Source: Candidatus Brocadiia bacterium
GTDB taxonomy: Bacteria; Planctomycetota; Brocadiia; SM23-32
Direction: 5' to 3'
DNA length: 14,746 nt
Assembly: GCA_046538485.1 (NCBI GenBank)
Contig: JBKHIT010000084.1
Span: forward strand, 1-14,746
Shown one piece after another: positions 376 to 14,746 of this stretch. The position numbers were made by a program, and so were the translations under genes. The notes under the pieces are model-generated. The model searched no databases. It saw only the letters and a program-made list of their open reading frames with translations, and was not told where the DNA came from. Every line of letters begins with the position of its first letter. Positions within the stretch are counted from its first letter, which is position 1.

Positions 376-2856
376 ATGCGCATCCCCATGCACGTCGAAC
401 AGTCGCTTGGTATCAGCCGTCCCGATGAACCGGTCCTCTGCGGGGTCCCCGTGCCACGAGGCGAGCTGACGGAGACCGGCTGGATGTTTCTGCATCATGC
501 GAATGGCGACCGTTGGCCGGTCCACACGTCCCCCGCCGCCTACTGGCCCGACGGCTCGGTCAAGTGGCTGCACGTATGTGGGCGGCTGTCGCTTGATGAA
601 GGGGCCAGTCACGATCTTTCGTTGGACACGGTGGGGATTGACCATGCGGATACGCCGTCCCTTAAGGTCGAGGAACGGGATGACGGGGTCGTCGTCACCG
701 GAGGGCCAATCGAGGTCACGCTTGGTCCGGAGATCGACGGCTGGCTGAACGCCCGTCCAGCGGCTGGTGCTCCGGGAGCCAGCGTGACGGGGCTTTCGCC
801 GGAGCTGGACTTCGTCGGACCGGAGCCGGAGACGCCTCCGCGAGCCGGCTGCTTCGTGATTGCCGACGGCCCGACGCGGGTCGTATCGCGGAGCCCCAAC
901 CGAGTGGTGCTTCGCAGCAACGGCCATTGGCTCGACGAGGCCGGCGAACCGATGGCGGAACTGCGGCTTTTCGTCGAGGTCCGCGCTGATATGGCAGAGG
1001 TCCGGTTGCAACCCGCTCTGATCTATCTCGGCCAAGCCCAAAGGGACTTGCTGCGCCGCTTTGAACTCGTGGTGCGAAGCGGCATGGGGGCGACGCTGTC
1101 TTCGATGGAGGACATCGCGCCACTCACGGATACGAAAACATACCTCACTGGCGACGGTCCGGCCGACCCGCGCCCCATTGACAGGATCACTTACGGCTTC
1201 GGTGCCGAACAGGGCCGCGGCTACTGGGACCGTGTGCGGCCGTATGTCCACCTGGCGCGTTTTCCACAGGCTCGGCAGGTGCAAATCGGCTCCAGCTTTT
1301 ACCGCACTGAGAAGCGCGTGTTGCCCGACGGCTGTAGCTGGGTGAAAGCCAATGAGGGACGACGCGCTCAGGGCTGGTGTCACCTCAATCAGGACGGTAC
1401 CGGGTTGACTGCCGCCATGCGCTACTACTGGCAGGAATACCCCAGTTCCCTGGCGGTGGACGCCGAGCAGGGCACGCTCACCTTCGGGTTTTGGCCCGCC
1501 GCCGCTGAGCCGCTGGACCTGCGTCGCTACTCGCCCATGCGCTACGGCCCGGACGCCTATGAGTATGGCACCGGTTTTTTCCCCGAGGAGACACATGGGG
1601 CCCACGGTGTGGCCAAAGCGCGGGAATTGGTCTTACAGTTTCACGATGGGCCGGCCGACTCCCGGGAACAACGCTGGGCGGTGGCCCGCCGGGCGTTGAG
1701 CTTCACGCGGCCATTGCGCCCGATGGCCACTGGCGCCCACTTCGCGGCTACCGAAGTCGTGGGCCAGGTGGGTGCCATTGACAGTCGGAGCGGCGAGGAC
1801 GTGGCGAAACGGATCAGCGAAGTCATACACCTGCTCGCCAGCGAACGGGACCGACGCGGCTGGTACGGTATGGTCGATTTCGGCGATATCCTGATGGGCT
1901 ACTATACCGCCCTCGAGCGTTGGGCCTTCGACGACGGCGGCTACGGATGGATCAACACCGAGCACCTCCCGGACTACGGATTGTGGCTGTGCGCTTTGGC
2001 TTCCAGGCGTGACGACTGGCTGAAACTGGCCATCGAGATGTCTCGGCACAACCGCGACCTGGACACCTACCACGCCGGCAATTTCATCGGCTCGGGCACG
2101 CGGCACAACGTCAACCACTGGGGCTGCGCCGACAAAGAATGGCGCGTATCCAACCCCATCTCCCGCCGGCTTCACTTCTACACCACCGCCGATCCATGGA
2201 CCGCCGAGGTCATCGGCACCACCGTGGAGATGTACCAATCCTACGAACGTACCTGCACGCTGGCGCCGTCCATGTCGGCGGCCCTTTCCGGTGTGCTCAC
2301 CAAGTGGGAAATGAGCGGTCGCGAGGAGGACGGCGAGGTGGTCCGCAAGATGGCCGACGTCTACGCCCGGGCGTTCATGGAAAGTGGCACTTTTCTTAAC
2401 GAGATGCACGTGAATATCGCCACCGGCGAGGGGCACCCCATCGAAGGCAAGGAGGCCGGGGCCTACTTCTTCTTCGAAACTTTCGGCGCCCAACACACGC
2501 TCTGCGAACTGGCATTGCTGCTCGAGCACAAGGAGCTGGCCGACGCTCTGACGCGCTATGCCCGTTTCCGGGCCGAGCCTGGTCGGGACGGCCGGCAGCC
2601 CGGCACTGGCCCCTTGCCAGCCTGCGCCCTCGCCTACCGGATCACCGGCGATCCGGAATTCCGCAAGCGCGTGCGAGGATCTCTTGAGGAGGCGGGCCAG
2701 GATCTGCACACCACCGGCGGCGATGGTTTGCAGGAGGAGCCTATCCACATGGCGCCCGTTGAGTGTGTTCGCCGCAATAAATTCGCCTGTAGACTGGCGC
2801 AAATCCTGCTCGTGGCGCCGGTGGCACTGGCGGCGCTGCAGGAAACCGACACTTGA
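376..2856 (+). CDS. YetA/PcRGLX-like protein, putative exo-rhamnogalacturonan lyase family (PL26-like), 826 aa
   Basis: Long ORF with GGAGA RBS at ~365-369. N-terminal GVPVPRGEL...YWPDGSVKW, and C-terminal GWYGMVDFGD...RWAFDDGGYGWINTE and GSGTRHNVNHWGCADKEWRVS segments that resemble the conserved YetA/PcRGLX motifs. No obvious signal peptide. Confidence 0.72.
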   Translation: MRIPMHVEQSLGISRPDEPVLCGVPVPRGELTETGWMFLHHANGDRWPVHTSPAAYWPDGSVKWLHVCGRLSLDEGASHDLSLDTVGIDHADTPSLKVEERDDGVVVTGGPIEVTLGPEIDGWLNARPAAGAPGASVTGLSPELDFVGPEPETPPRAGCFVIADGPTRVVSRSPNRVVLRSNGHWLDEAGEPMAELRLFVEVRADMAEVRLQPALIYLGQAQRDLLRRFELVVRSGMGATLSSMEDIAPLTDTKTYLTGDGPADPRPIDRITYGFGAEQGRGYWDRVRPYVHLARFPQARQVQIGSSFYRTEKRVLPDGCSWVKANEGRRAQGWCHLNQDGTGLTAAMRYYWQEYPSSLAVDAEQGTLTFGFWPAAAEPLDLRRYSPMRYGPDAYEYGTGFFPEETHGAHGVAKARELVLQFHDGPADSREQRWAVARRALSFTRPLRPMATGAHFAATEVVGQVGAIDSRSGEDVAKRISEVIHLLASERDRRGWYGMVDFGDILMGYYTALERWAFDDGGYGWINTEHLPDYGLWLCALASRRDDWLKLAIEMSRHNRDLDTYHAGNFIGSGTRHNVNHWGCADKEWRVSNPISRRLHFYTTADPWTAEVIGTTVEMYQSYERTCTLAPSMSAALSGVLTKWEMSGREEDGEVVRKMADVYARAFMESGTFLNEMHVNIATGEGHPIEGKEAGAYFFFETFGAQHTLCELALLLEHKELADALTRYARFRAEPGRDGRQPGTGPLPACALAYRITGDPEFRKRVRGSLEEAGQDLHTTGGDGLQEEPIHMAPVECVRRNKFACRLAQILLVAPVALAALQETDT

Positions 2857-2964: not shown

Positions 2965-3060
2965 ATGCAATCACGTCAGACGTCCCACCGTCCGAACATT
3001 ATTTTTATTCTTGTGGACGACATGGGCTGGATGGACCTGTCCTGCCAGGGCGAGTTATAG
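2965..3060 (+). pseudogene. Sulfatase N-terminal stub (31 aa), truncated
   Basis: GAGGAG RBS, then MQSRQTSHRPNIIFILVDDMGWMDLSCQGEL*. PNIIFILVDDMGW.DL is the canonical start of formylglycine-dependent sulfatases. The frame ends at TAG 3058-3060, within the left end of the repeat element, before the CxPxR motif. Confidence 0.85.
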
Positions 3061-3390
3061 GGGTCGGACCATAACATATCGTTACTGATACTCACTTTGC
3101 AACTTTCCAGGGCCCGCTCAGAGGGCTTAGAAGCGCTCCCCTCAAAACTTGTCCGCCTCGGGCGTGATCAACTGTAAGAGGGCGGGGTTTTTCTGACGCG
3201 CCAGCTCTCCTCTCCTGGACCGTCCCTCGCCCGTCGTTCCGCCGTTATCCAGCAACCATCAACCAGCAACTTGAGTTCCGTTAGCGCCGTTTTTCAGGGG
3301 GTAAAAAACGCGTCTAACGCCATATACGATCCCATGTTTTGTCGTATCTAATTTCCAAAACTGCATTTGTTATGGTCCGACACCCTTTAG
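3054..3390. mobile_element. Non-coding inverted-repeat-bounded element, copy 1 (MITE-like or recombination-site module)
   Basis: Left GTCGGACCATAACA (3063-3076) is the exact reverse complement of TGTTATGGTCCGAC (3368-3381). No ORF inside. Both ends are homologous to the element at 4016-4493. Exact outer boundaries are uncertain by several bases. Confidence 0.7.
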
Positions 3391-3408
3391 CCTGTTGCCG
3401 CTTACCAC

Positions 3409-3876
3409 TTACGTTCGTATCTCACAACTATCCACTGGCTTTCCGTTCCTAAACCATCTCTCTTGGTGTTTCTCTTGGTCCGTCAACTCCAGCAACAATC
3501 CGTACTTATATTGATATTCTCGTGCGCCGTGGGGAGGCTTTGTATAATCCTTTGCTTTTTCCGCATCGCCACTCTCCTCCTTTTTCAGCTCAACTACAAG
3601 CAGGTTGTCCTCTGGTTGAGTCTTGCCGCGTTTATGCAAAATTATGTCGGGACGAATATTCTGTCCGTCAGAGTTAGGTTTTGATGTACCGTCTTTCCCC
3701 TGTCGATTGTACTCACAGTCCACATCCCAGCAGTCAGGAAATTGTTGCTCAAGATACACGGCTAAACGGTGTGCCATAGACCACTCGGCCGTGTCCCAGG
3801 TAAACAGCTCAGGGTCGCGTGCCCAAAATTCTTCGATGGCTTCCCTAACCAGTTGCTTTACTTCTTCAAATTCCAT
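3409..3876 (-). CDS. Hypothetical protein with PD-(D/E)XK nuclease-like motifs (~155 aa)
   Basis: AGGAGG RBS at 3888-3883 favours ATG 3876 over 3882. Motifs EWSMAHRLAVYL, VDCEYNR, RPDIILH and VVELKK fit the E...PD...ExK pattern. Visibly more AT-rich than the flanking genes. Confidence 0.75.
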   Translation of the reverse strand: MEFEEVKQLVREAIEEFWARDPELFTWDTAEWSMAHRLAVYLEQQFPDCWDVDCEYNRQGKDGTSKPNSDGQNIRPDIILHKRGKTQPEDNLLVVELKKEESGDAEKAKDYTKPPHGAREYQYKYGLLLELTDQEKHQERWFRNGKPVDSCEIRT

Positions 3877-4015
3877 TCTCATCCTCCTGATGAGTTGTCA
3901 AGAAACTTCCCAGCATTCGATCCAACATGATGGGTACTTGCGTCGAGCGGATTGAGCTCGATTTCAGAGACAAAAGATAGGGAGTATATAGGGATCGATC
4001 CCAAGCCTGGGGCCG

Positions 4016-4493
4016 CCTATAGGATGCGGACCATAACATATCGTTGATGACACTCATTTTACAACTTTTCAGGCGTCGCTCAGTCGGATTCAACTCGGTT
4101 CGTCCCTGCGAGATAGATATGTGCGGCAAGCTTCTTTCCTGCCGTTCTTAACTCGCAACTCCCTTGAACGCTTATTCCGGGATTTTATTGTTTCTCGGCT
4201 TTCTCCCCGCAGTCGCGTGTCCAGCAAGCTGGCGCCACGTTGTTTCCTTTCTCGTTCCTCGATTTTCTCGTTTCTCGACGATACTCAACTCGCTCCAGCG
4301 CCTCAATCAGTTCATCTCCATCTCGTATCCCGTATCACGCATCTCTATCGCGCCACTAACTCTCAACTGCCGTTCCCTTCCGCTTAGCCCCCCCATTTCC
4401 CCCACAAAATGCCCCGTCTAAGCCATATATGAGGGATCTTTTTGTCCTATCCCAAGCTCCACCAACAACTTCGGTTGGTCCGACCCGGATAAC
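4016..4493. mobile_element. Non-coding inverted-repeat-bounded element, copy 2 (same orientation as copy 1)
   Basis: 4018-4083 matches 3056-3121 at 54/66 by hand alignment, including the identical 19-mer CGGACCATAACATATCGTT. The right end shares CGTCTAA-GCCATATA-GA-N7-TTTTGTC-TATC-N24-TGGTCCGAC with copy 1. The interior is different, longer and pyrimidine-rich. Confidence 0.7.
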
Positions 4494-4500
4494 CAAACCC

Positions 4501-4770
4501 TCCTTCGACCCGGATGAAGGTTATTCAGGGCTTGTTACGGACAGAAAGGCCTTTATTGCCTACGCGCGGGGCGGGAACTACAGCGATGATGCTGCCATGC
4601 GAGAACTGGACCACCAGACCACCTATATGCCCCAGATTCTTGGATTCATGGGCATAACGGATGTGGAGAGTGTAACCGTAGAACCCACCCTCCACGAAGG
4701 CCAGGAAGTGGCCGAAGAGAAACGGGATTTGGCCATTGACAGGGCACGCACCATCGCGGAGAATTTCTAA
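4501..4770 (+). pseudogene. azoR: C-terminal fragment of an FMN-dependent NADH-azoreductase (AzoR/AcpD family), 5' half missing
   Basis: SFDPDEGYSGLVTDRKAFIAYARGGNY...DHQTTYMPQILGFMGITDVESVTVE matches the AzoR C-terminal half (GL..K....RGG.Y; D.Q..Y...LGF.GITDV). The N-terminal FMN-binding loop and PMWNF motif are absent. The ORF-track start at 4429 lies inside element copy 2. Confidence 0.8.
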
Positions 4771-4817
4771 CCCGCCGACATTAACGACTGACGGGAGCGA
4801 CAACCGGATCGGCTTTT

Positions 4818-4988
4818 ATCCACAGATTACGCAGATTTGCACAGATTTGTTTTTGGATCGACCGGAACCAGCTTTACAGGCCTTCGAGGGGCTGATTTCC
4901 CTGTGTACAGGCGTTTTCCTGGACACTCCATGTCTGTTTCTCGTTTTTTTGTTGCTCTAATCGGCGATAATCTATGTAATCTGTGGAT
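4818..4988. repeat. 171-bp element bounded by ~30-bp imperfect inverted repeats built from three ~9-nt (A/G)CAGATT units
   Basis: ATCCACAGATTACGCAGATTTGCACAGATT (4818-4847) versus AATCGGCGATAATCTATGTAATCTGTGGAT (4959-4988); the outer 13 bp pair perfectly. Confidence 0.8.
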
Positions 4989-5150
4989 CAACGGTGGTAT
5001 CTTGGAATCCAATTTTACCTCCCCCTCAGAGTGGGTAAGACGTTTCGCATCTGCGCCAACGTTCAAACGCCCGCTTCGCGGGCTCCAAGAAACAAAAACC
5101 GGAAGGTACTTATTTCTTGCCGCTTAGTTGGGGACCGTGGCCCGTGCCCA

Positions 5151-5918
5151 GAGGTATTTTCAAATGTTGTGGATGAGGGATTTGAGTTTGTCCTCTGGAA
5201 GATCATTTATGCCGCCTCTTTAAGTTCGATGCCGTCCTTGAATTTGACCCCGGAGATCACTTTCGGGATCAGTTTATAGCCGTTTATCCTGCGCCAGTGC
5301 TTCTCCCCCTCCCCCCCGAGCTTGAACACCATCGTGAGGGTGGCCTTCCGGTATCCGCAACCTTTGGTCTGACGGCTGCGGTGACGGACGGTCGCGAAGG
5401 TGGATTCGATGGGGTTGGTGGTGCGAATGTGAACCCAGTGCCTGGCCGGGAAATCGTAGAACCGGCAGCAGGGCCTCGATGCTGGGGGCCTTACGCATGT
5501 AGGGAGGTAGAATGCTGCTGCTGCTGAATTCCTCTCCCTCTCGCCGGTCCCTGGCACGGGGTTTTTGCACCTCTATATCTCCCAGTCCGGACTGAATGTT
5601 GCGCGGTGGTGCATAACCGTTTCTCACTACCAGGCGGTGGCCACTATCGGGACCTACCACGTGTTTGTGATTTTCCACATACGCGCTGACCTCCGCTTCC
5701 ACCGCGGCCTGAAGCATTTGCCTGGCTCCTTCTCGCAAAATGTTATCGAGTTCGCTACGTGAGTCTTCTTCGATTCGCTTTTCCAGATCTACAACGTTAT
5801 CATCTTGCATGAGCGTATCCTTTCTGTGCCCTCGCCTGAGGGCAAACTGGGAAAAAGTGAAATACTTCTCCAGAGGATACGCTCTTTCTTTCTCATCCAC
5901 AACATTTGATAATACCTC
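5151..5918 (-). mobile_element. IS256-family insertion sequence, internally deleted (768 bp), non-autonomous
   Basis: 27-bp terminal inverted repeats matching at 26/27: GAGGTATTTTCAAATGTTGTGGATGAG (5151-5177) and the reverse complement of 5892-5918. Encloses transposase fragments. The flanks (CGTGCCCA / GATGCGTG) are not a direct repeat. Confidence 0.92.
5207..5810 (-). pseudogene. IS256-family (Mutator-like) transposase with a large internal deletion and frameshift
   Basis: The N-terminal part from ATG 5810 (LREGARQMLQAAVEAEV...VVRNGY...PRARDR...SILPPY) is joined at ~5460 to the C-terminal part in another frame (FYDFPARHWVHIRTTNPIESTFATVR...KEAA*, stop 5209-5207). The central region carrying the two catalytic aspartates is missing. 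Confidence 0.92.
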
Positions 5919-5919
5919 G

Positions 5920-7005
5920 ATGCGTGAGATGAAACGCTCCATGGAGAAGATGGCCGATGAGCTATCCGAACTCAAGGAATGGCGGCGGGACAACATGGAT
6001 GTGCCTCCTGCCCCCGAAGATAAGGTTGAGGACTCCAGGGTTACTTCTCACACCATCAGCAGCGTCCGCAAGAAGTTCAGTTTAGACCAGCAAGAGCTCG
6101 CCGATCTGTTGGACGTATCACCGAGAACAGTGTCGGCCTGGGAGACCGGCAAGAGCAGGCCCCGGGGCGGGAACAAGGCCCGTATAATAACTCTCCGGGA
6201 AATGAACAGGTCCGAGGTGGAGGAAGCCCTGGGCCGGAAAAGCGCAGAAGAAAAGAGATTCGGGCAGAAGGATGTAAAGCAACTGCGGGATAAACTCGGG
6301 CTCACGCAGGAACAGATGGGCGAGCAGCTGGGAGTGTCCTCCGCCGCCGTGGGGCACTGGGAATCTGGAAAAACTAATCCCGGCCGAGCGGCGCAGAAGA
6401 CACTTCGGGACCTTGCCCGGCGGAAACCAGAGCAGCCGGAGGAAGCCGAGGAGGAGATCGGTTCTAAAACGGGGACGGACAAGCAGTTTGATGCCGAGAA
6501 TATAAGAGCAATGCGCAAGGAGGCGGGCCTGTCCCAGAAAGAGATGGCCGCGGAGCTTGAGATTTCATCGAGAACTGTATCGAACTGGGAGACCGGCAGC
6601 ACCAGCCCGACGGGAAAGGCGCTTGAGGCCCTGAGAGAGTGGAGCGAATCTTGCGAAGAAAAAACAGGTGAGGAGCTTACCGGCGACGATATACGGACCC
6701 TCCGGGATGAGATGGACCTGACCCAGAAACAGTTTGCCGAGAGACTGGGAGTCACCGCAACTACGGTTGGGAACTGGGAGACCGGAAACACAAGCCACAG
6801 AGGGGAGAACAGAGAAACACTGCTGGAGCTCAGAAGTGATCCAGCCACTGAAGACGCCACCAGTGAAGAGAACGCAGGGCCGGGAAATGGGTCGGAAGAG
6901 ACCAGCTCGCCGGATTCCCGGATATACTCCCTTCGTGGTTATATTTCTGAGGATCGATCTCCAGAAGATGCGGATAACCGGGGTGGTAAACCTGCTGGGG
7001 ACTGA
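5920..7005 (+). CDS. Protein with four tandem XRE/Cro-C1 helix-turn-helix domains (~361 aa); 5' end probably clipped by IS256
   Basis: Four repeats of (I/V)xxxRxxxxLxQxxxxxxLxVSxxxVxxWExGxxxP at roughly 6052-6200, 6271-6420, 6499-6640 and 6688-6835. The ORF-track start 5740 lies inside the IS. The first ATG outside the IS is 5920 and has no clear RBS; 5929 and 5941 are alternatives. Confidence 0.85.
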   Translation: MREMKRSMEKMADELSELKEWRRDNMDVPPAPEDKVEDSRVTSHTISSVRKKFSLDQQELADLLDVSPRTVSAWETGKSRPRGGNKARIITLREMNRSEVEEALGRKSAEEKRFGQKDVKQLRDKLGLTQEQMGEQLGVSSAAVGHWESGKTNPGRAAQKTLRDLARRKPEQPEEAEEEIGSKTGTDKQFDAENIRAMRKEAGLSQKEMAAELEISSRTVSNWETGSTSPTGKALEALREWSESCEEKTGEELTGDDIRTLRDEMDLTQKQFAERLGVTATTVGNWETGNTSHRGENRETLLELRSDPATEDATSEENAGPGNGSEETSSPDSRIYSLRGYISEDRSPEDADNRGGKPAGD

Positions 7006-7231: not shown

Positions 7232-7300
7232 CGGGTATATTTTATATGCTTTGCTTGTGTGTAAATGGGGATCAGCAGCTTTTGGAGGAGTGAATTGACA

Positions 7301-7858
7301 ATGAACGGTGAACTGCTTCGTAATCTTTTCCAACTTCGTCTGGCCGTCGGACGTTTTGGCGAAATGGATAACATGAAGTGGTGGAATACCAATGGGATGC
7401 TGGGGCGTTATGGGGAGAAGGCGCTGAGCCGTGGTTTACCCCGAACCCATTTCTTCGCTCAGGCACGCACCGTCTTCAAGGTGGCCACTCACCGCAGCAA
7501 GCAGGTATTCACCCCTCCCAATGGGGTTACGCTGTGGGACATGCCGGCGGATATTGAACGGGATTTTGAGGAAAAGTGGCACCAGTGGATGGACGAGAAC
7601 GAACAGTGGGAGCCGTTCTTCCGCCAAATTAAACAGTGGGATGGGGACGATCTTGTCGGTTTTCTCACCCGGAACGATCTGCTCACGGACCAGCTGGCCA
7701 CTCAAGCCCAGAACCTGCGACGGTCTGCGCAGGGACAAGCCGTGCTTCTGTCGGATTATTCCAACGTGAATGATGAGTCCGTGGCTTTGCTGGCGGCCGG
7801 CTTTTGCCGGGGGGAACCCCAGAAACCGGCCATCCCCTATGTCCGCATGGAAGGGTAA
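7301..7858 (+). CDS. brxE: BrxE family protein (BREX accessory)
   Basis: LRLAVGRFGEMDNMKWWNTNGMLG...LSRGLPRTHFFAQAR...TLW...PY resembles the BrxE family, and the gene sits directly before brxA. GGAGGA at 7284-7289 favours a start at 7295 (TTG) or 7301 (ATG) over 7265. Confidence 0.75.
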   Translation: MNGELLRNLFQLRLAVGRFGEMDNMKWWNTNGMLGRYGEKALSRGLPRTHFFAQARTVFKVATHRSKQVFTPPNGVTLWDMPADIERDFEEKWHQWMDENEQWEPFFRQIKQWDGDDLVGFLTRNDLLTDQLATQAQNLRRSAQGQAVLLSDYSNVNDESVALLAAGFCRGEPQKPAIPYVRMEG

Positions 7859-7865
7859 CCCATTC

Positions 7866-8648
7866 ATGACAACCACACGGTCCCAGGAAGTCTCCTCCTT
7901 CACCATCGTCAAAGGTGGACTTATTGAGGAAACCTATCTGGCGTTCCAGAACTGGGATTTCGATCTGTCCAAACGCGAGAATCTGCAGAAGTTCCGTGAG
8001 GAAGATCCTATCGGTGCCACCAGTGCCAACATGCTGGATGAGGTGGCTATGGGCCTGAGCCGACGATTTGAACCCAACACGCGCGATCGCCCTCTGGTCG
8101 AGCTGGCCAAAGCCGGTTGTGAACGGGAAGTGTGGGAACCACTTCTGCTGTGGCATATGACCCGCGATGAGTTTCTGGTCCGCGATTTCCTGCTGAACTG
8201 GCTTTTCCCCCGATACGAGGACGGAGCGTTGGCCGTCCAGGCCAATGAGGTGATCCCGTATCTCAAAACACTGCCCGAGAAAGGCGTTACATCCACCGAT
8301 TCATGGGCGGACTCCACTCTCAAAAGGGTGGCTTCCGGGCTTCTCCGCATCGCCGTTGACTTCGGGCTCATGACCGGCCGGGTAAAACGGGAGTTTGCCT
8401 CCTATCACCTGCCCGATGACAGCTTCATGTATCTTCTGCACGCGCTTGCCGAACAACAGTCCAATGCCAATCATATTGTGCAGTCCGACGAGTGGCGAAT
8501 GTATCTTATCACGCCCCGACAGGTGGAACGCCGGGTTCTGCAGTTGCATCAGTACAACAAACTTGACTATCACGTGGCAGGGACGCTTGCGCAGCTTTCC
8601 CTGCCCGCTGAATCGACCCTGGAATATGCACGAGGAATGATATCGTGA
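7866..8648 (+). CDS. brxA: BrxA family protein (DUF1819)
   Basis: SSFTIVKGGLIEETY...LLLWHMTRDEFLVRDFL..WL...WADSTLKRVASGLLRIAVDFGL; canonical position before brxB/brxC. ATG 7866 follows the brxE stop by 7 nt. Confidence 0.82.
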   Translation: MTTTRSQEVSSFTIVKGGLIEETYLAFQNWDFDLSKRENLQKFREEDPIGATSANMLDEVAMGLSRRFEPNTRDRPLVELAKAGCEREVWEPLLLWHMTRDEFLVRDFLLNWLFPRYEDGALAVQANEVIPYLKTLPEKGVTSTDSWADSTLKRVASGLLRIAVDFGLMTGRVKREFASYHLPDDSFMYLLHALAEQQSNANHIVQSDEWRMYLITPRQVERRVLQLHQYNKLDYHVAGTLAQLSLPAESTLEYARGMIS

Positions 8649-9220
8649 ATGACTGGAGAGAAAGACTCAAACGTCTGGAACGCCTTCTGAAACAGACGGA
8701 CCCCCGCACCGATATCAGTGCGTATCACGATATGCCCTGTGCCATTTTCCGTTATAACCCGGAGGATGAGTTTCCGTTTCGGGAGGAGCTTTCCCTTCTT
8801 CAAACCCGCCTCAGTGCGGCCGGAAAGACGGTCACCCGCATTTCACTGGCCAAATGCCTCACCGAGGCTCTGGAGAGGGAAGGTATGTCGGCGGATCGGA
8901 TGGCGATGGCTGAACGCAGCGCGGGAGTCGGCAAGATTATTGACCAGATCCATAAAGTCCTCAGCGACTACTGTCCTCTGGATGAACTCGTGGCGGAGCA
9001 TTTCCCCTCCGACGGAGATCCCACCGAAGACCTTATTTTCATCACGCGGGCGGGGGCGCTTTTCCCCGCATACAGAACATCCGCTCTTCTGGAACAGCTT
9101 ATGGGGACGGTGGAGCTGCCGGCGGTGTTGTTCTATCCCGGGCGTCTGGAGGGTGCTGCTGGACTCAAGTTTATGGGCATCACCGACGCCGAACACAACT
9201 ATCGCCCCAAAATCTTCTAA
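8645..9220 (+). CDS. brxB: BrxB family protein (DUF1788)
   Basis: GTGA overlap with the brxA stop. AIFRYNPEDEF...GALFPAYRTSALL...VLFYPG...GLKFMG...NYRPKIF is typical of BrxB. Confidence 0.88.
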   Translation: MNDWRERLKRLERLLKQTDPRTDISAYHDMPCAIFRYNPEDEFPFREELSLLQTRLSAAGKTVTRISLAKCLTEALEREGMSADRMAMAERSAGVGKIIDQIHKVLSDYCPLDELVAEHFPSDGDPTEDLIFITRAGALFPAYRTSALLEQLMGTVELPAVLFYPGRLEGAAGLKFMGITDAEHNYRPKIF

Positions 9221-9238
9221 CACTCAGGATGTGAACCG

Positions 9239-12200
9239 ATGACAGAAAAACTGAACAGAGATCTCTTTGCCCGCGACATTGATCGGCGTATTGAAGAGGT
9301 TATCAAGGTCGATCAGACCGATGAGAAGATCATCCACGATGAAATTGAGGAATACGTCGTCACCGACGCCATCGGGGAGTATTATGTTGATATCCTGAAT
9401 CGATACCAGGAAACCCCCAACAACCCGCATGAAGGCGTGGGAGTCTGGGTGTCCGGTTTTTTCGGATCCGGTAAATCGAGCTTTGCGAAGATGCTGGGAT
9501 TGGCTCTGCAAAATCAGGAGGTGATGGGCGTCCCGGCCGCCGAACTGTTCAGTCAGCATATTGACAATGAACGCATGAAGGTCCACCTCAGTAACATTAC
9601 GGAGAACATCCCCACCCACTCGGTCATCTTTGATGTATCCAGTGAACGAGGAATACGGTCGGGCAATCAGACGATTTACGAGATAATGTACCGGATGTTT
9701 CTCGAAAGCCTGGGTTACGCCCGTGATCTCGACCTGGCGGAACTGGAGATTTCTCTTGAAGAGGCCGGCCGACTCAACGAGTTCAAGGAAACCTACGCCG
9801 ACATCTATGACAAAAGCTGGGACCGGGAGAAAGGGAAGGTTGCCTTCGCCATCGGGGAAGCAAGCCGCGTGATGCATGAGATGGACCCGGAGACATACGA
9901 AACCGCCGACAGCTGGTCCACGGGGGCACAGGACCGCGCGGATATCACGGCCGACAAACTGGCCACTCGGTGCCAGAAGCTGATGGAACGACGCAAACCG
10001 GATCACACGCTCATGTTTGTGATTGATGAGGTCGGCCAGTTCGTCTCGCGAAACGTACAGAAAATGCTCGATCTCCAGGGCGTCATCCAGAGCCTTGGAC
10101 GCGTGGGCCGGGGAAAGATGTGGCTGGTGGTCACATCCCAGGAGAAACTGACGGAACTGGTGGATGGTCTGGATGATAAACGGGTCGAGCTTGCCCGGCT
10201 CATGGACCGGTTCCCGCAGGAACTGCAGGTACATCTGGAACCCTCTGATATCTCCGAAGTCACCAGCAAACGAGTTCTGTCGAAAAATGCCGAGGCGGAG
10301 GAGCTGCTGCGAGATGTGTATTCACGCCACCGGGGGCGACTCAGTAAAAACACGCAGCTCAGCGCCGATATTCGCCTGCCCGAACTCAACGCCGACAGTT
10401 TTATCGATCTGTATCCGCTTATGCCCTACCAGGTGGACCTGATGATCAGCGTGGTGTCGGGATTGCGAACCCAGGGCGGCGCCAGCAAACACGTGGGCGG
10501 TGCCAACCGGACCATCATCAAACTCGCCCAGCAGCTGCTCATCCACCCCGACGTCAACCTGGCCGACGAGGAAGTGGGCACCCTGACCCGTATCGATCAG
10601 ATGTACGACCTGGTTTCGGGCAATATCCCGAGCGAAATACGTGGCAAGATCGACCGGATTGAGGAACAGGCCGACCATGAGATGGCCCAGCCGGTGGCCA
10701 AAGCCATCTGTCTGCTGCAATACGTCAAAAGCATTCATCGCACGGAAGACAACATTGCGGCAGCCCTTCACCCGGCCGTCGATGCCGATAGTGTCCTGCC
10801 CAAAGTCAAGGAGGCGTTGGCTGAGCTGGAAGACCGAACCCTCATCCGTCACGATGACGAGGGGTACCGAATACCCACACCAGCCGAAGACGACTGGGAT
10901 AAACAGCGGGATGCGGTGGACCCGACTCACGGAGACATGGTCCGCCTCTACCGGGAAGCATTGGAACAACTATGGCAGCCTCAACCGTCGCACAATTTTA
11001 TGAAGACCAAGAAATTCACGGCCGGATTGTATTTCAACGGTCGTCCCATCAAGGAGGGCGACATCCCGTTCGACATGACCCTGGCGGAAGTGGGCGAAGA
11101 ATACGATCAGCAGGTGTCCGACATGCGGAGCCGGAGTCAGACCGAAGATGATAAGGTCTTCTGGATCACTCCCGTCGGCGATGCCATTCGCCGGGAAACC
11201 GTGGAACTGTACCGGTCCAAAAAGATTATTCAGAAGAAAGAACGGGGATCCCACACCGAGGAGGAACGCGATCTCATCACCGAGGAGAAGAGCCGTCAGT
11301 CCCGCCATCAGAAAGAGCTGAAACGGCTGCTCAAACGGGCATGCCTGGGAGGAACGCTCTATTTTCGGGGTAACGACCGAAGCCCATCCGGTGGGAAGGA
11401 TGATGTGGGGAAAGTGGCCGAAGGGGTGCTGAAGGAGGCCCTGCCCGATGTGTATGACCGGTTCGAGGAAGCGGCCGCGAAAGTCAAAAAGAAGGACCTG
11501 AAGGCATTGCTCACGGCCGATAACCTGAAAGGACTGCCATCGGTGTTTACCGATCTTGGTTTGCTCCGTGACGAAAACGGCCGAGTGGTCTTCAGCACCG
11601 ATGAAGATCCTCTCAACGAGGTGTTCAATACCATCAAAAACAGAACTGATTACGGTGAGACGGCGAGTGGACGTTACCTGGCAAACCAGTTTGCCGATGA
11701 ACCGTTTGGGTGGGATTTCGACGTGGTGCGCCTGCTGGTGATCTCCCTTTTGCGAGCCGGACAGGTGGAAGCGGTCAGTAAGGGCAAGACGATTGACTCC
11801 GCCCTGTCGGTGGAGGCCCAGAACACGTTCCCCAACAACAACCGATTTCGCAGCGCGTCCTTCCGGCCGAAAGTGTCCGATATCGACTTTCCGGATGTCG
11901 TGGATGCGGCCGATGCGTTCGAGGAGATCTTTGGCCAGGAGGTGGCCGAACTGGAACAGACCGCGGTGGTGCGTGACATCCAGGAGCAGCTGGCACGGAA
12001 AGAGGATCAGATACGAGAAGCACAGCGTCTGCTCACCTCCCATTCGCTTCCCGGAGCCGAGGTCTTGGACGAGGCGATTGACCAGATCAGTTCCATCCGC
12101 ACCGGCGATGAGAGTAACGCCATCCTGACGTTCAACGGGGCATACCGGGAACTGGAGGCGGCCATTCAGCGGACCACGGAGATCCACAAAAATCTGACGG

Positions 12201-12787
12201 AACCACGGTTGCAGGAGCTGAAGCGGGCGAGGGACGTTCTGGACAATAAATGGCCCGTGTTGAAGAAAGAAGAGGATCTCGATGAGACGTATCGTGAACA
12301 TGCCGAGAAACTTCAGGACCTGATGCAGCGCGAATCTTTTTTTGACGATCTCGCCGCCATTGATCGGCATGCAAATGCTCTGAAAGAAGAATACGACCGG
12401 CGCCATCAGCAGGCCCTGGAGGACCGCACGGAGGCGTATGAGGAGGCACTGGAGGAGCTGCATGGCATGCCAGAGTGGACCAAACTGGAGGAGGAGAAAC
12501 GTGAAAGAGTGGCATCCAGGATCAAAGAACGGGCGACGGATTACAATGCGGAGGGGGAATCCCTTGCCCTCCTGCGGACGGAGCGTGACGCATGTGAGCG
12601 TGAACTGGCCCAGGCCCGAGAGAACGCCATGCGACTGATCGACGGGAAACGGGTGGAACGGGTGAGCGTGGGCAGTTACTTTCAGGGCGGCATCGAGACC
12701 GAGGAGCAGCTGGACGAGGCTCTGAAAGGCCTGCGGGAGAAATGTGAGAAGTTGATTGGCGCCGGTAAGAAGATACTTTTGCAGTAA
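9239..12787 (+). CDS. brxC: BREX P-loop ATPase BrxC, 1182 aa
   Basis: LFARDIDRRIEEVIKV, EYVVT, Walker A WVSGFFGSGKS, Walker B FVIDEVGQ, VVTSQE, DRF, LYP, and a coiled-coil C-terminus. Confidence 0.95.
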   Translation: MTEKLNRDLFARDIDRRIEEVIKVDQTDEKIIHDEIEEYVVTDAIGEYYVDILNRYQETPNNPHEGVGVWVSGFFGSGKSSFAKMLGLALQNQEVMGVPAAELFSQHIDNERMKVHLSNITENIPTHSVIFDVSSERGIRSGNQTIYEIMYRMFLESLGYARDLDLAELEISLEEAGRLNEFKETYADIYDKSWDREKGKVAFAIGEASRVMHEMDPETYETADSWSTGAQDRADITADKLATRCQKLMERRKPDHTLMFVIDEVGQFVSRNVQKMLDLQGVIQSLGRVGRGKMWLVVTSQEKLTELVDGLDDKRVELARLMDRFPQELQVHLEPSDISEVTSKRVLSKNAEAEELLRDVYSRHRGRLSKNTQLSADIRLPELNADSFIDLYPLMPYQVDLMISVVSGLRTQGGASKHVGGANRTIIKLAQQLLIHPDVNLADEEVGTLTRIDQMYDLVSGNIPSEIRGKIDRIEEQADHEMAQPVAKAICLLQYVKSIHRTEDNIAAALHPAVDADSVLPKVKEALAELEDRTLIRHDDEGYRIPTPAEDDWDKQRDAVDPTHGDMVRLYREALEQLWQPQPSHNFMKTKKFTAGLYFNGRPIKEGDIPFDMTLAEVGEEYDQQVSDMRSRSQTEDDKVFWITPVGDAIRRETVELYRSKKIIQKKERGSHTEEERDLITEEKSRQSRHQKELKRLLKRACLGGTLYFRGNDRSPSGGKDDVGKVAEGVLKEALPDVYDRFEEAAAKVKKKDLKALLTADNLKGLPSVFTDLGLLRDENGRVVFSTDEDPLNEVFNTIKNRTDYGETASGRYLANQFADEPFGWDFDVVRLLVISLLRAGQVEAVSKGKTIDSALSVEAQNTFPNNNRFRSASFRPKVSDIDFPDVVDAADAFEEIFGQEVAELEQTAVVRDIQEQLARKEDQIREAQRLLTSHSLPGAEVLDEAIDQISSIRTGDESNAILTFNGAYRELEAAIQRTTEIHKNLTEPRLQELKRARDVLDNKWPVLKKEEDLDETYREHAEKLQDLMQRESFFDDLAAIDRHANALKEEYDRRHQQALEDRTEAYEEALEELHGMPEWTKLEEEKRERVASRIKERATDYNAEGESLALLRTERDACERELAQARENAMRLIDGKRVERVSVGSYFQGGIETEEQLDEALKGLREKCEKLIGAGKKILLQ

Positions 12788-12794
12788 AGGGATC

Positions 12795-14702
12795 ATGGAC
12801 CAGGATACGCGGAACCAGATACAGAACGCCACGCAGGACGCCCGGGAGCTTCTGGAGGAAGAATACGCCGCCCAGCTTGAGGGCACCTACGACATACTGC
12901 CCGATGGCACCATTCCGGAGAAACCCGGCGAACATCTCGATGGTCGGGGACGCATCACGCGAGAGAAGCTGGTGGAGGCCATTGAGCATAAAATATCGGG
13001 GGGCATGGACGCCGATCAGGCCGTCGCTGCCTACCGACGCGAGGCGGCGTTCACCACCCTCAACCGGTTCGTGGCCCTCAAGATGCTGGAGTCCCGCGAT
13101 CTGGTTCAGGAATGCGTCTCCCGTGGCGAGCAGTCTGCAGGGTTCCGGGAATTCACCGGCCTGGCCGAGGGGCTGAACGAGCTCCCCGATCACGGCTACC
13201 GGCTCTACATCGAGAGTCTCTTTGATGAGATTGGCCGGGAGGTCGGCGTGCTCTTCGACCGACGCGACCCCGCCTCGTTGCTCTGGCCCCGGCGACAGGT
13301 CCTGGAGGACCTGCTGGACATCCTCAATGCCGATGAACTGGAAGGGGTCTGGGACGAGGACGAGACCATCGGGTGGGTCTACCAGTATTTCAACAGCGGC
13401 GATGAGCGCAGCCAGATGCGGTCGGAATCATCGGCTCCCCGGAACAGCCACGAGCTGGCGGTGCGCAACCAATTTTTCACGCCCCGCTATGTGGTGGAGT
13501 TTTTGACGGACAACACGCTGGGGAGGATCTGGTATGAGATGCGCCGGGGGGAGACCGACCTGACCGAACAGTGCGACTACATGGTGCGCCGTCCCAACGA
13601 AGTGTTTCTCGACGAGGGCGAGGAACCGCCCGAGGATGCTGATCAGGAAGATGAGGATCTCAGCCAGGAAGAACTTCTTCAGAAACCGGCCTACATTCCG
13701 TTCAGAGCCCTGAAGGATCCCCGCGACATCCGGGTTCTCGATCCCGCCTGCGGCTCAGGTCATTTCCTGCTCTACGCGTTTGTGCTTCTCCTGACGATTT
13801 ATCGGGAGGCCTGGGAATCCGGGAGTGGCCCGGAATCGGAGGCGACGGGGAGCTCCCTTCACGAAGATTATTCCACCTGGCAGGAACTGCAGAGAGATCT
13901 TCCGGGCCTCATCCTCCGTCACAACCTCCACGGCATCGAGATCGATCACCGGGCGGCCCAAATCGCCTCTCTGGCCCTCTGGATGCGGGCTCAGCGCGCC
14001 TATAACGAGCAGGAGATCCCACGAGCAGATCGCCCGCCCATCACACGGACGAACGTGGTGGTCGCCGAACCCATGCCGGGCGAAAAGGACATGTTGGAGG
14101 AGTTCCTCCGTGAGCTGCGTGAGGACCGGCTGGAGGGGCTCATGGAGCAGGTGTTCGACGTGCCGGAGGGCGGCCGATTGCGGGCCACTCGTGCCATGGC
14201 CGACAGCCTGTGCGAACTGGTGGAGACGGTGTGGGAGAAGATGGAGCTGGCCGGGGAGGCGGGGAGCCTGCTGAAGATCGAGGAGGAACTGGACGAGGCG
14301 ATTGCCGAAAGCCGCAACGAGTGGGAGCAGAAACTCCCGCTGTTTCGCGTGACGGAACTCAACATCGAAGGGGAGGAAAAGGAACACTATCCCCGTACGG
14401 CGCCGGGGGCGGAGGACGACTTCTGGTCAAAGGCCGAGATGTTGGTTTTGGCCGCACTGGAGCAGTATGCCGAGCGGGCAAGAAATGATCGATCCTACCG
14501 CCGCCGGTTGTTTGCGGAAGAAGCTGCGCATGCTTTCGCCTTCGTAGATGTCTGCCGACAAAATTATGACGTAGCGCTTATGAATCCCCCGTTCGGAGCA
14601 CCGACAACTGCAAGCAAGCCTCATGTGGCCAAATGCTACTCCAAATGTAAGGAGGACATCGACGCTGCTTTTGTTTCCCGAGGCGTAGACCTCCTAGCCT
14701 GA
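12795..14702 (+). CDS. pglX: BREX adenine DNA methyltransferase PglX (BrxX), apparently truncated at 635 aa
   Basis: AAGGGA RBS and ATG 12795. Motifs EAAFTTLNRFVALKMLE, ETIGWVYQYF, QFFTPRYVVEFLTDNTLG, SAM-binding DPACGSGHFL, NLHGIEID and catalytic NPPF. TGA at 14700-14702 comes ~35 codons after NPPF, whereas PglX is normally about twice this length. Confidence 0.9.
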   Translation: MDQDTRNQIQNATQDARELLEEEYAAQLEGTYDILPDGTIPEKPGEHLDGRGRITREKLVEAIEHKISGGMDADQAVAAYRREAAFTTLNRFVALKMLESRDLVQECVSRGEQSAGFREFTGLAEGLNELPDHGYRLYIESLFDEIGREVGVLFDRRDPASLLWPRRQVLEDLLDILNADELEGVWDEDETIGWVYQYFNSGDERSQMRSESSAPRNSHELAVRNQFFTPRYVVEFLTDNTLGRIWYEMRRGETDLTEQCDYMVRRPNEVFLDEGEEPPEDADQEDEDLSQEELLQKPAYIPFRALKDPRDIRVLDPACGSGHFLLYAFVLLLTIYREAWESGSGPESEATGSSLHEDYSTWQELQRDLPGLILRHNLHGIEIDHRAAQIASLALWMRAQRAYNEQEIPRADRPPITRTNVVVAEPMPGEKDMLEEFLRELREDRLEGLMEQVFDVPEGGRLRATRAMADSLCELVETVWEKMELAGEAGSLLKIEEELDEAIAESRNEWEQKLPLFRVTELNIEGEEKEHYPRTAPGAEDDFWSKAEMLVLAALEQYAERARNDRSYRRRLFAEEAAHAFAFVDVCRQNYDVALMNPPFGAPTTASKPHVAKCYSKCKEDIDAAFVSRGVDLLA

Positions 14703-14746
14703 ACTTTACGGATATCCTGCCGTTATCTGGCGTAAGCAATGCTTTA

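Follow-up and report, generated by a model that had tools for sequence, protein, structure and literature searches.

Putative MITE-like elements on either side of a lone PD-lambda-3 A-type nuclease gene in a Candidatus Brocadiia contig

We analyzed a complete metagenome contig of 14,746 bases from a Candidatus Brocadiia bacterium (contig JBKHIT010000084.1, assembly GCA_046538485.1), hereafter referred to as the window, in which two homologous DNA elements lie on either side of a lone nuclease gene. Both elements, E1 (3058-3387, 330 nt) and E2 (4020-4489, 470 nt), have the same orientation on the plus strand, and the gene between them (3409-3876, 155 aa) is encoded on the minus strand. The explanation we favor, with an estimated probability of about 60%, is that E1 and E2 are two diverged elements resembling miniature inverted-repeat transposable elements (MITEs), and that their present layout was reshaped by later rearrangement. 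An initial annotation, made from the sequence alone, had recognized two homologous elements of the same orientation, which proved to be real and whose borders are refined here. It had also proposed that element, gene and element move together as one unit, a proposal that the evidence presented below does not support.

Modules, ends and tips of the two elements

Homology between E1 and E2 resides in their ends. At the left (3056-3128 and 4018-4090), the two elements share a direct repeat of 73 nt with 79% identity, which blastn reports as 82% identity over 66 nt (E = 5.5e-14) and which reaches a local alignment score of 72, compared with 14.8 ± 2.2 in 300 shuffles. The right ends (3311-3381 and 4415-4484, about 72 nt) are homologous as well, a point absent from the initial annotation, with a score of 29 against 14.6 ± 2.1 and a maximum of 23 among 300 shuffles. 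The middles are unrelated, their score of 16 being no higher than that of shuffled sequences (17.7 ± 2.2). E1 is composed of a left module extending to 3121, a middle of 189 nt (3122-3310) and the right module, with inverted ends at 3060-3079 and 3365-3384; E2 is composed of a left module extending to 4083, a middle of 331 nt (4084-4414) and the right module. From these alignments, E1 and E2 are predicted to be old, diverged relatives within one element family.

The ends carry a CGGACCA core, which the initial annotation had reported in inverted orientation at the two ends of each element. This motif occurs 12 times in the window where 2.9 ± 1.6 occurrences are expected, a count reached in 0/200 shuffles, and four of the 12 occurrences are the element ends. 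A TA dinucleotide is found 7-8 nt outside the CGGACC core at all four element ends, whereas the remaining 8 occurrences of CGGACCA lack it; for comparison, 2.7% of all dinucleotides in the window are TA, and 4.5% of those in the region. The four TA dinucleotides are located at 3056-3057 and 3388-3389 (left and right tips of E1) and at 4018-4019 and 4490-4491 (left and right tips of E2), and the borders of both elements were set by taking TA as the edge. TA is also the only candidate target duplication and is common to all four tips. The left tip reads TATAGG, which we take to be similar to the tip of Correia elements. Among other candidates, a 3-nt duplication (TTA) fits E1 and not E2 and was dropped, and both a Tn3-type 38-nt end starting with GGGG and a dif-like XerC/XerD site were unconvincing when assessed by eye.

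Within E1, the two ends pair in inverted orientation over 20 nt with 90% identity. The initial annotation had drawn attention to the outermost ends of the pair, namely E1 left and E2 right, which match at 16/18 positions. This match exists (89% over 18 nt), but it is not special. When the first 26 nt inward from TA were compared for all four ends, matching columns counted from TA amounted to 23/27 for E1 left with E1 right, 22/27 for E2 left with E1 right, 19/27 for E1 left with E2 right and 18/28 for E2 left with E2 right, the right inverted end of E2 being the most diverged of the four. Because the left end of E1 pairs better with the right end of its own element than with that of E2, most of the 16/18 match would reflect family resemblance.

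No third copy of the element was found in the window, with the exception of a left-end-like motif at 3987-4001 (+), TATAGGGATCGATCC, located 17 nt outside the left TA of E2. It holds a perfect palindrome, GGGATCGATCCC, and differs by 3 mismatches from the left tip of E1; at this level, 4 matches are present in the window where 0.34 are expected. An imperfect palindrome, GGACCTGTCC, is likewise seen at 3033-3042, 14 nt outside the left TA of E1. Such palindromes outside the left tips could reflect a preference for certain target sites, be what is left of a third end or serve the nuclease gene as an operator.

Coding capacity and further copies of the family

E1 and E2 are predicted to be devoid of protein-coding capacity. 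Six-frame stop-to-stop pieces (n = 22) gave no PADLOC match and nothing above noise in Pfam, and the longest open reading frame (ORF) in E2 (4037-4387) had no homologue at E ≤ 1 among 22 candidates, nor was the ORF itself recovered. In addition, the translated left modules are only 53% identical, compared with 82% for their DNA, as would be seen for non-coding DNA. Domain searches also bore out the earlier statement that no transposase or recombinase is encoded within 3054-4493.

Searches at the nucleotide level did not reveal relatives of the elements. With 3040-4510 as the query, blastn in distant mode gave no match in either plasmids or phages. The shared 18-mer was present at 2 loci among genome contigs (one in a Piscinibacter metagenome-assembled genome (MAG) and one in a proteobacterial MAG), where similarity did not extend beyond 18-21 nt and is attributable to chance, and a literature text search with the core 11-mers returned only unrelated primer or k-mer matches. 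We also built a 31-position profile from the minus-strand translation of the left module and searched it against 1.84 billion representative proteins (E ≤ 0.001). It retrieved 4 short proteins (E = 8.5e-12 to 1.7e-05), all of which carry the left module followed by differing sequence beyond the tip. The only Pfam match to any of them was DUF7543 (E = 0.0053), below the cutoff. These proteins are predicted to be spurious ORFs lying over other copies of the element on other contigs. In one of them (P0177), colinearity with E1 extends across three reading frames and covers about 3321-3057; the middle of E1 is therefore conserved in another copy. Another (P0178) reads across an entire element (about 250 nt), entering at the right inverted end and leaving at the left one, and shows similarity to the right module of E1 as well as to that of E2, on the E2 side at 4499-4359.

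With these copies, size variants of about 250, 330 and 470 nt are represented in the family. Dispersed copies, size variants and differing neighbors together give a MITE profile: terminal inverted repeats are present (weaker in E2), the elements are small and non-coding, and copies are scattered over unrelated sites. On this basis, E1 and E2 are assigned to a putative dispersed and uncatalogued MITE-like family, in line with the earlier description of non-autonomous elements with inverted ends belonging to one family, which is strengthened by the lack of coding capacity and by the further copies with other flanks. None of the 4 other copies shows a trace of nuclease cargo. The initial annotation had conceded that the pair would be two independent MITE insertions if the ends matched a catalogued insertion sequence (IS) and copies occurred singly with no recurring cargo. 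As to the copies, other sites, other flanks and the absence of recurring cargo are what we observe.

We also considered whether the modules are cassette sites for site-specific recombination (integron-like or Xer/dif-module-like) or a regulatory RNA framing defense genes. Conserved ends, free middles and one small gene between units do recall cassette arrays, and the most conserved 19-mer contains a small imperfect palindrome. Furthermore, both left modules keep the minus-strand motif TTG(T/C)AA, 18 nt, TATGTT (4064-4035 in E2 and 3102-3073 in E1), which agrees with the sigma-70 consensus at 8/12 positions. This promoter-like motif is directed outward across the left tip and, in E2, is aimed at the nuclease gene 140 nt away. 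It falls below the threshold of our promoter and terminator scan, which detected nothing within the elements. Integron cassettes with their attC sites offer the closest parallel, in that non-coding repeat units whose inverted cores are imperfect surround a single small gene. However, E1 and E2, at 330 and 470 nt, are several times longer than attC sites (about 60-140 nt), their ends do not fit the attC cores RYYYAAC/GTTRRRY (consensus compared by eye), and no integrase or recombinase is present in the window besides an unrelated IS256 fragment. Units also occur solo elsewhere: the other copies have other flanks, and one solitary 250-nt element lies inside a long spurious ORF. As for an RNA, an Rfam 15 scan of the whole window, a check suggested by the initial annotation, yielded 0 matches at E ≤ 1, and the RNA fold z-scores of -2.6, -3.3 and -2.3 are accounted for by the pairing of the inverted ends with each other. 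Taken together, we regard a recombination site or regulatory RNA as very improbable.

The nuclease gene, its broken outer neighbors and competing explanations

The gene between the elements, for which an alternative start exists at 3882, had been described as a single AT-richer gene of PD-(D/E)XK type. Its guanine-cytosine (GC) content is indeed lower than that of the elements (47.4% vs 51-52%), and motifs and fold agree with the class. Although no Pfam or NCBIfam match was obtained for the protein, it matches the PADLOC model PD-Lambda-3_A (E = 3.3e-18), the alignment covering profile positions 18-148 of 159. Residues E31, E55, P76, D77, E96 and K98 are invariant in a 51-sequence family alignment. 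An AlphaFold2 model (predicted local distance difference test, pLDDT, of 91.6) has its best Foldseek matches in DrdV, NucC and a protein with a "restriction endonuclease-like fold", at E of about 3e-03 and probability 0.98-0.99 and with a TM-score of just 0.43-0.49. The closest relatives are hypothetical proteins of about 150 aa with at most 55% identity (the database form, P0002, has 155 aa), and homologues on plasmids share only about 28-38% identity.

PD-lambda-3 is listed among PD-(D/E)XK systems in one publication (PMC10952713) and serves as an abortive-infection control in another (PMC13190303); the term "PD-lambda-3" is absent from the main text of PMC9519451. Its two-gene make-up is deduced from PADLOC models A and B matching adjacent genes, as in the E. 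coli plasmid NZ_ON934556.1, where component A (2.3e-100) is directly followed by component B (1.2e-179). The gene described here resembles the E. coli system in its match to the component A model, its PD-(D/E)XK residues and its fold, and differs in that no component B was detected beside it: none of the 22 pieces spanning E1, E2 and the gene flanks matched component B in PADLOC. A-like genes without an annotated B are also found on Xanthomonas pXCV183 and Photobacterium pPHDD1, the gene tables of which may be incomplete. We conclude that the middle gene is a predicted orphan nuclease of the PD-lambda-3 A type with a modeled PD-(D/E)XK fold. E1 begins 19 nt past its stop codon.

Outside the elements, both neighboring genes are broken. 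To the left lies the 5' stub of a sulfatase gene (2965-3057, plus strand, 31 codons), with a start codon at 2965 and a stop codon (TAG, 3058-3060) within E1; homology to sulfatases in PDB (phmmer, best E = 4.5e-05) reaches residue 29-30 of 31, corresponding to nt 3051-3054. To the right lies a 3' fragment of azoR (4492-4770, plus strand, stop codon at 4768-4770), recognized by PDB AzoR, by Pfam Flavodoxin_2 (positions 115-194 of 198) and by an NCBIfam azoreductase model. Here homology is found from nt 4510 onward and covers residues 128-211 of an AzoR protein of 211 aa. The initial annotation was thus right about the 31-codon stub and about both breaks falling at the tips, but azoR keeps its last 40% and not half. 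A 113-codon ORF (4429-4770) begins within E2 and runs into the azoR fragment, forming a chimeric frame.

Since both neighboring genes break at the tips, the tips would have been joined to sulfatase and azoR by transposition. The far side of each element does not hold the remainder of the broken gene. Two plain, separate insertions were rejected as an explanation, because the remainder of each gene would be expected beyond its element and is not there. A plain composite insertion was also rejected, as its excision would fuse the start of sulfatase to the tail of azoR, which do not make up one target. Neither simple insertion model fits, and at least one further event is therefore needed in any model.

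The unit proposed by the initial annotation corresponds to a composite, non-autonomous transposon moved in trans by means of its two outer ends (E1 left and E2 right), with the nuclease as its cargo. A pair of elements in the same orientation does bracket one gene, so that the outer tips consist of one left and one right end; TA is present at both outer tips, both outer neighbors are broken there and the GC content of the gene is unlike that of its surroundings. Composite-like pairs of MITEs (439 and 502 bp) have moreover been described on either side of integrons or of a 76-kb region (PMC6382973). On the other hand, the outer ends are less well matched than the own ends of E1 (19/27 vs 23/27), TA is also found at the inner tips and so does not mark the unit, and the two elements are diverged (about 80% identity in their best-conserved parts) with unrelated middles. 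Removal of the unit does not leave continuous outer flanks, as expected of a composite transposon, but the 5' stub of sulfatase next to the 3' fragment of azoR; there is no plausible empty site, and with outer flanks from two unrelated genes an extra deletion is needed regardless. The nuclease gene was not traced to the 4 other copies, which have other flanks. Movement of this kind is possible in principle and not new in kind, yet it is unsupported here, and we consider it unlikely that it produced the present layout. A stronger version, in which E1 and E2 are the working ends of a trans-mobilized shuttle for defense genes, is still less probable. In it, a TA-targeting transposase encoded elsewhere would move blocks into or between defense islands, the upstream left module would act as the promoter of the cargo, and the broken sulfatase and azoR genes would be scars.

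The missing gene halves could also have arisen during assembly. The assembler might have passed through collapsed repeat copies at E1 and E2, in which case sulfatase and azoR would lie at other loci, each interrupted by one simple MITE insertion, and two further copies would enclose the nuclease gene. The window is an entire metagenome contig, the family has proved to include multiple copies, the GC content differs across E1, and such a chimera would account, without any deletion, for genes ending exactly at the tips and for their missing halves. However, repeats more often break assemblies than create two successive false joins, and the known copies are diverged and not identical, so that an assembler can pass them correctly. 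We hold a chimeric contig to be unlikely.

Two diverged MITE-like elements with a later rearrangement remain the explanation that we prefer. Members of the family would have a TA at each tip and, around GTCGGACCATAAC, imperfect inverted ends some 25 nt long; the subterminal modules would be conserved but differ between left and right, and the middle would vary. Mobility would be supplied by a transposase from another locus that recognizes the conserved ends and uses TA as its insertion site, in the manner of enzymes of the IS630/Tc1 type. This proposed mechanism is based on the likeness to published TA-ended MITEs: bacterial MITEs are typically bounded by inverted ends and terminate in TA, and the RUP elements are tied to an IS630-type transposase that targets TA (PMC2229807). 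Later events would then comprise recombination or deletion between family copies, or assembly collapse of copies; alternatively, the interior may have been swapped by double recombination within the elements.

Several points weigh against this explanation. No transposase with these ends is present in the window, and the link to the IS630/Tc1 family is a guess. The TA may belong to the element itself and not stem from target duplication. The right inverted end of E2 is weak (18/28 columns), and the distant copy in P0178 must read CRTA at its left tip where the others read TATA, as derived from its protein sequence. Four matches in 1.84 billion proteins make for a thin sample, and the proposed later rearrangements are only inferred.

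Among known systems, the Correia/NEMIS elements of Neisseria and the RUP elements of S. pneumoniae, the latter linked to IS630-Spn1, are described in PMC2229807 as similarly non-coding and dispersed, with terminal inverted repeats, TA termini and size variants that differ by internal segments. Compared by description only, the elements studied here exceed them in size (330 and 470 nt vs roughly 100-200 nt) and have distinct left and right subterminal modules. A 439-bp MITE around class 1 integrons in Acinetobacter and MITE-297 (502 bp) around a 76-kb region resemble the arrangement reported here, in that a pair of similar size brackets foreign genes (PMC6382973). The copies of the Acinetobacter integron MITEs are, however, described as identical, whereas E1 and E2 share about 80% identity in their best parts and have unrelated middles and flanks from two genes.

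If E1 and E2 are simply two MITEs, the finding is of modest value, the gain being an uncatalogued MITE family in a lineage with poor sampling. The poor sampling shows in the flanking gene, whose closest relative has 69% identity, with named relatives at about 41-44% in Armatimonadota and Planctomycetota MAGs. The locus would in addition exemplify how repeats mark and reshape the edge of a defense island. Were the block indeed to move as a unit, it would provide a cheap route for shuttling single defense genes. We found no publication linking MITEs with phage defense in a search that covered only the spelling "defence" and the term "anti-phage".

Surroundings of the elements in the contig

E1, the nuclease gene and E2 are located at the left edge of a lower-GC defense island rich in mobile-element debris. 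Upstream, a PcRGLX-like lyase gene (376-2856, plus strand) has a GC content of 64.7%, which drops to 47-57% from the sulfatase stub (2965) onward. On the basis of this drop, either the right part is acquired DNA throughout or the contig joins two backgrounds.

Directly after the azoR fragment, a pair of 33-nt inverted repeats (79% identity) separated by 111 nt is found at 4815-4991 and may be another small repeat element. It is followed by an IS256/Mutator-family relic (5151-5918), in which 27-nt inverted repeats (96% identity) enclose only the N-terminal part of the transposase (ORF 5274-5996, minus strand; Pfam profile positions 8-106 of 379, with NCBIfam support). This relic is an internally deleted IS, and its ends are unrelated to those of E1 and E2.

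Further downstream, a gene at 5740-7005 encodes a protein with four helix-turn-helix domains (Pfam HTH_3), partly encoded by three diverged 75-nt DNA repeats, and lies directly upstream of the BREX genes. The BREX system itself (BrxE, BrxA, BrxB, BrxC and PglX; Pfam and NCBIfam) occupies 7265-14702. Its last gene, pglX (12756-14746), has a frame that ends at 14702, with 44 nt of the contig remaining, and breaks off inside the methyltransferase domain at position 124 of 171 in the Eco57I profile. The gene may be interrupted near this position, perhaps by another repeat that also terminated the contig.

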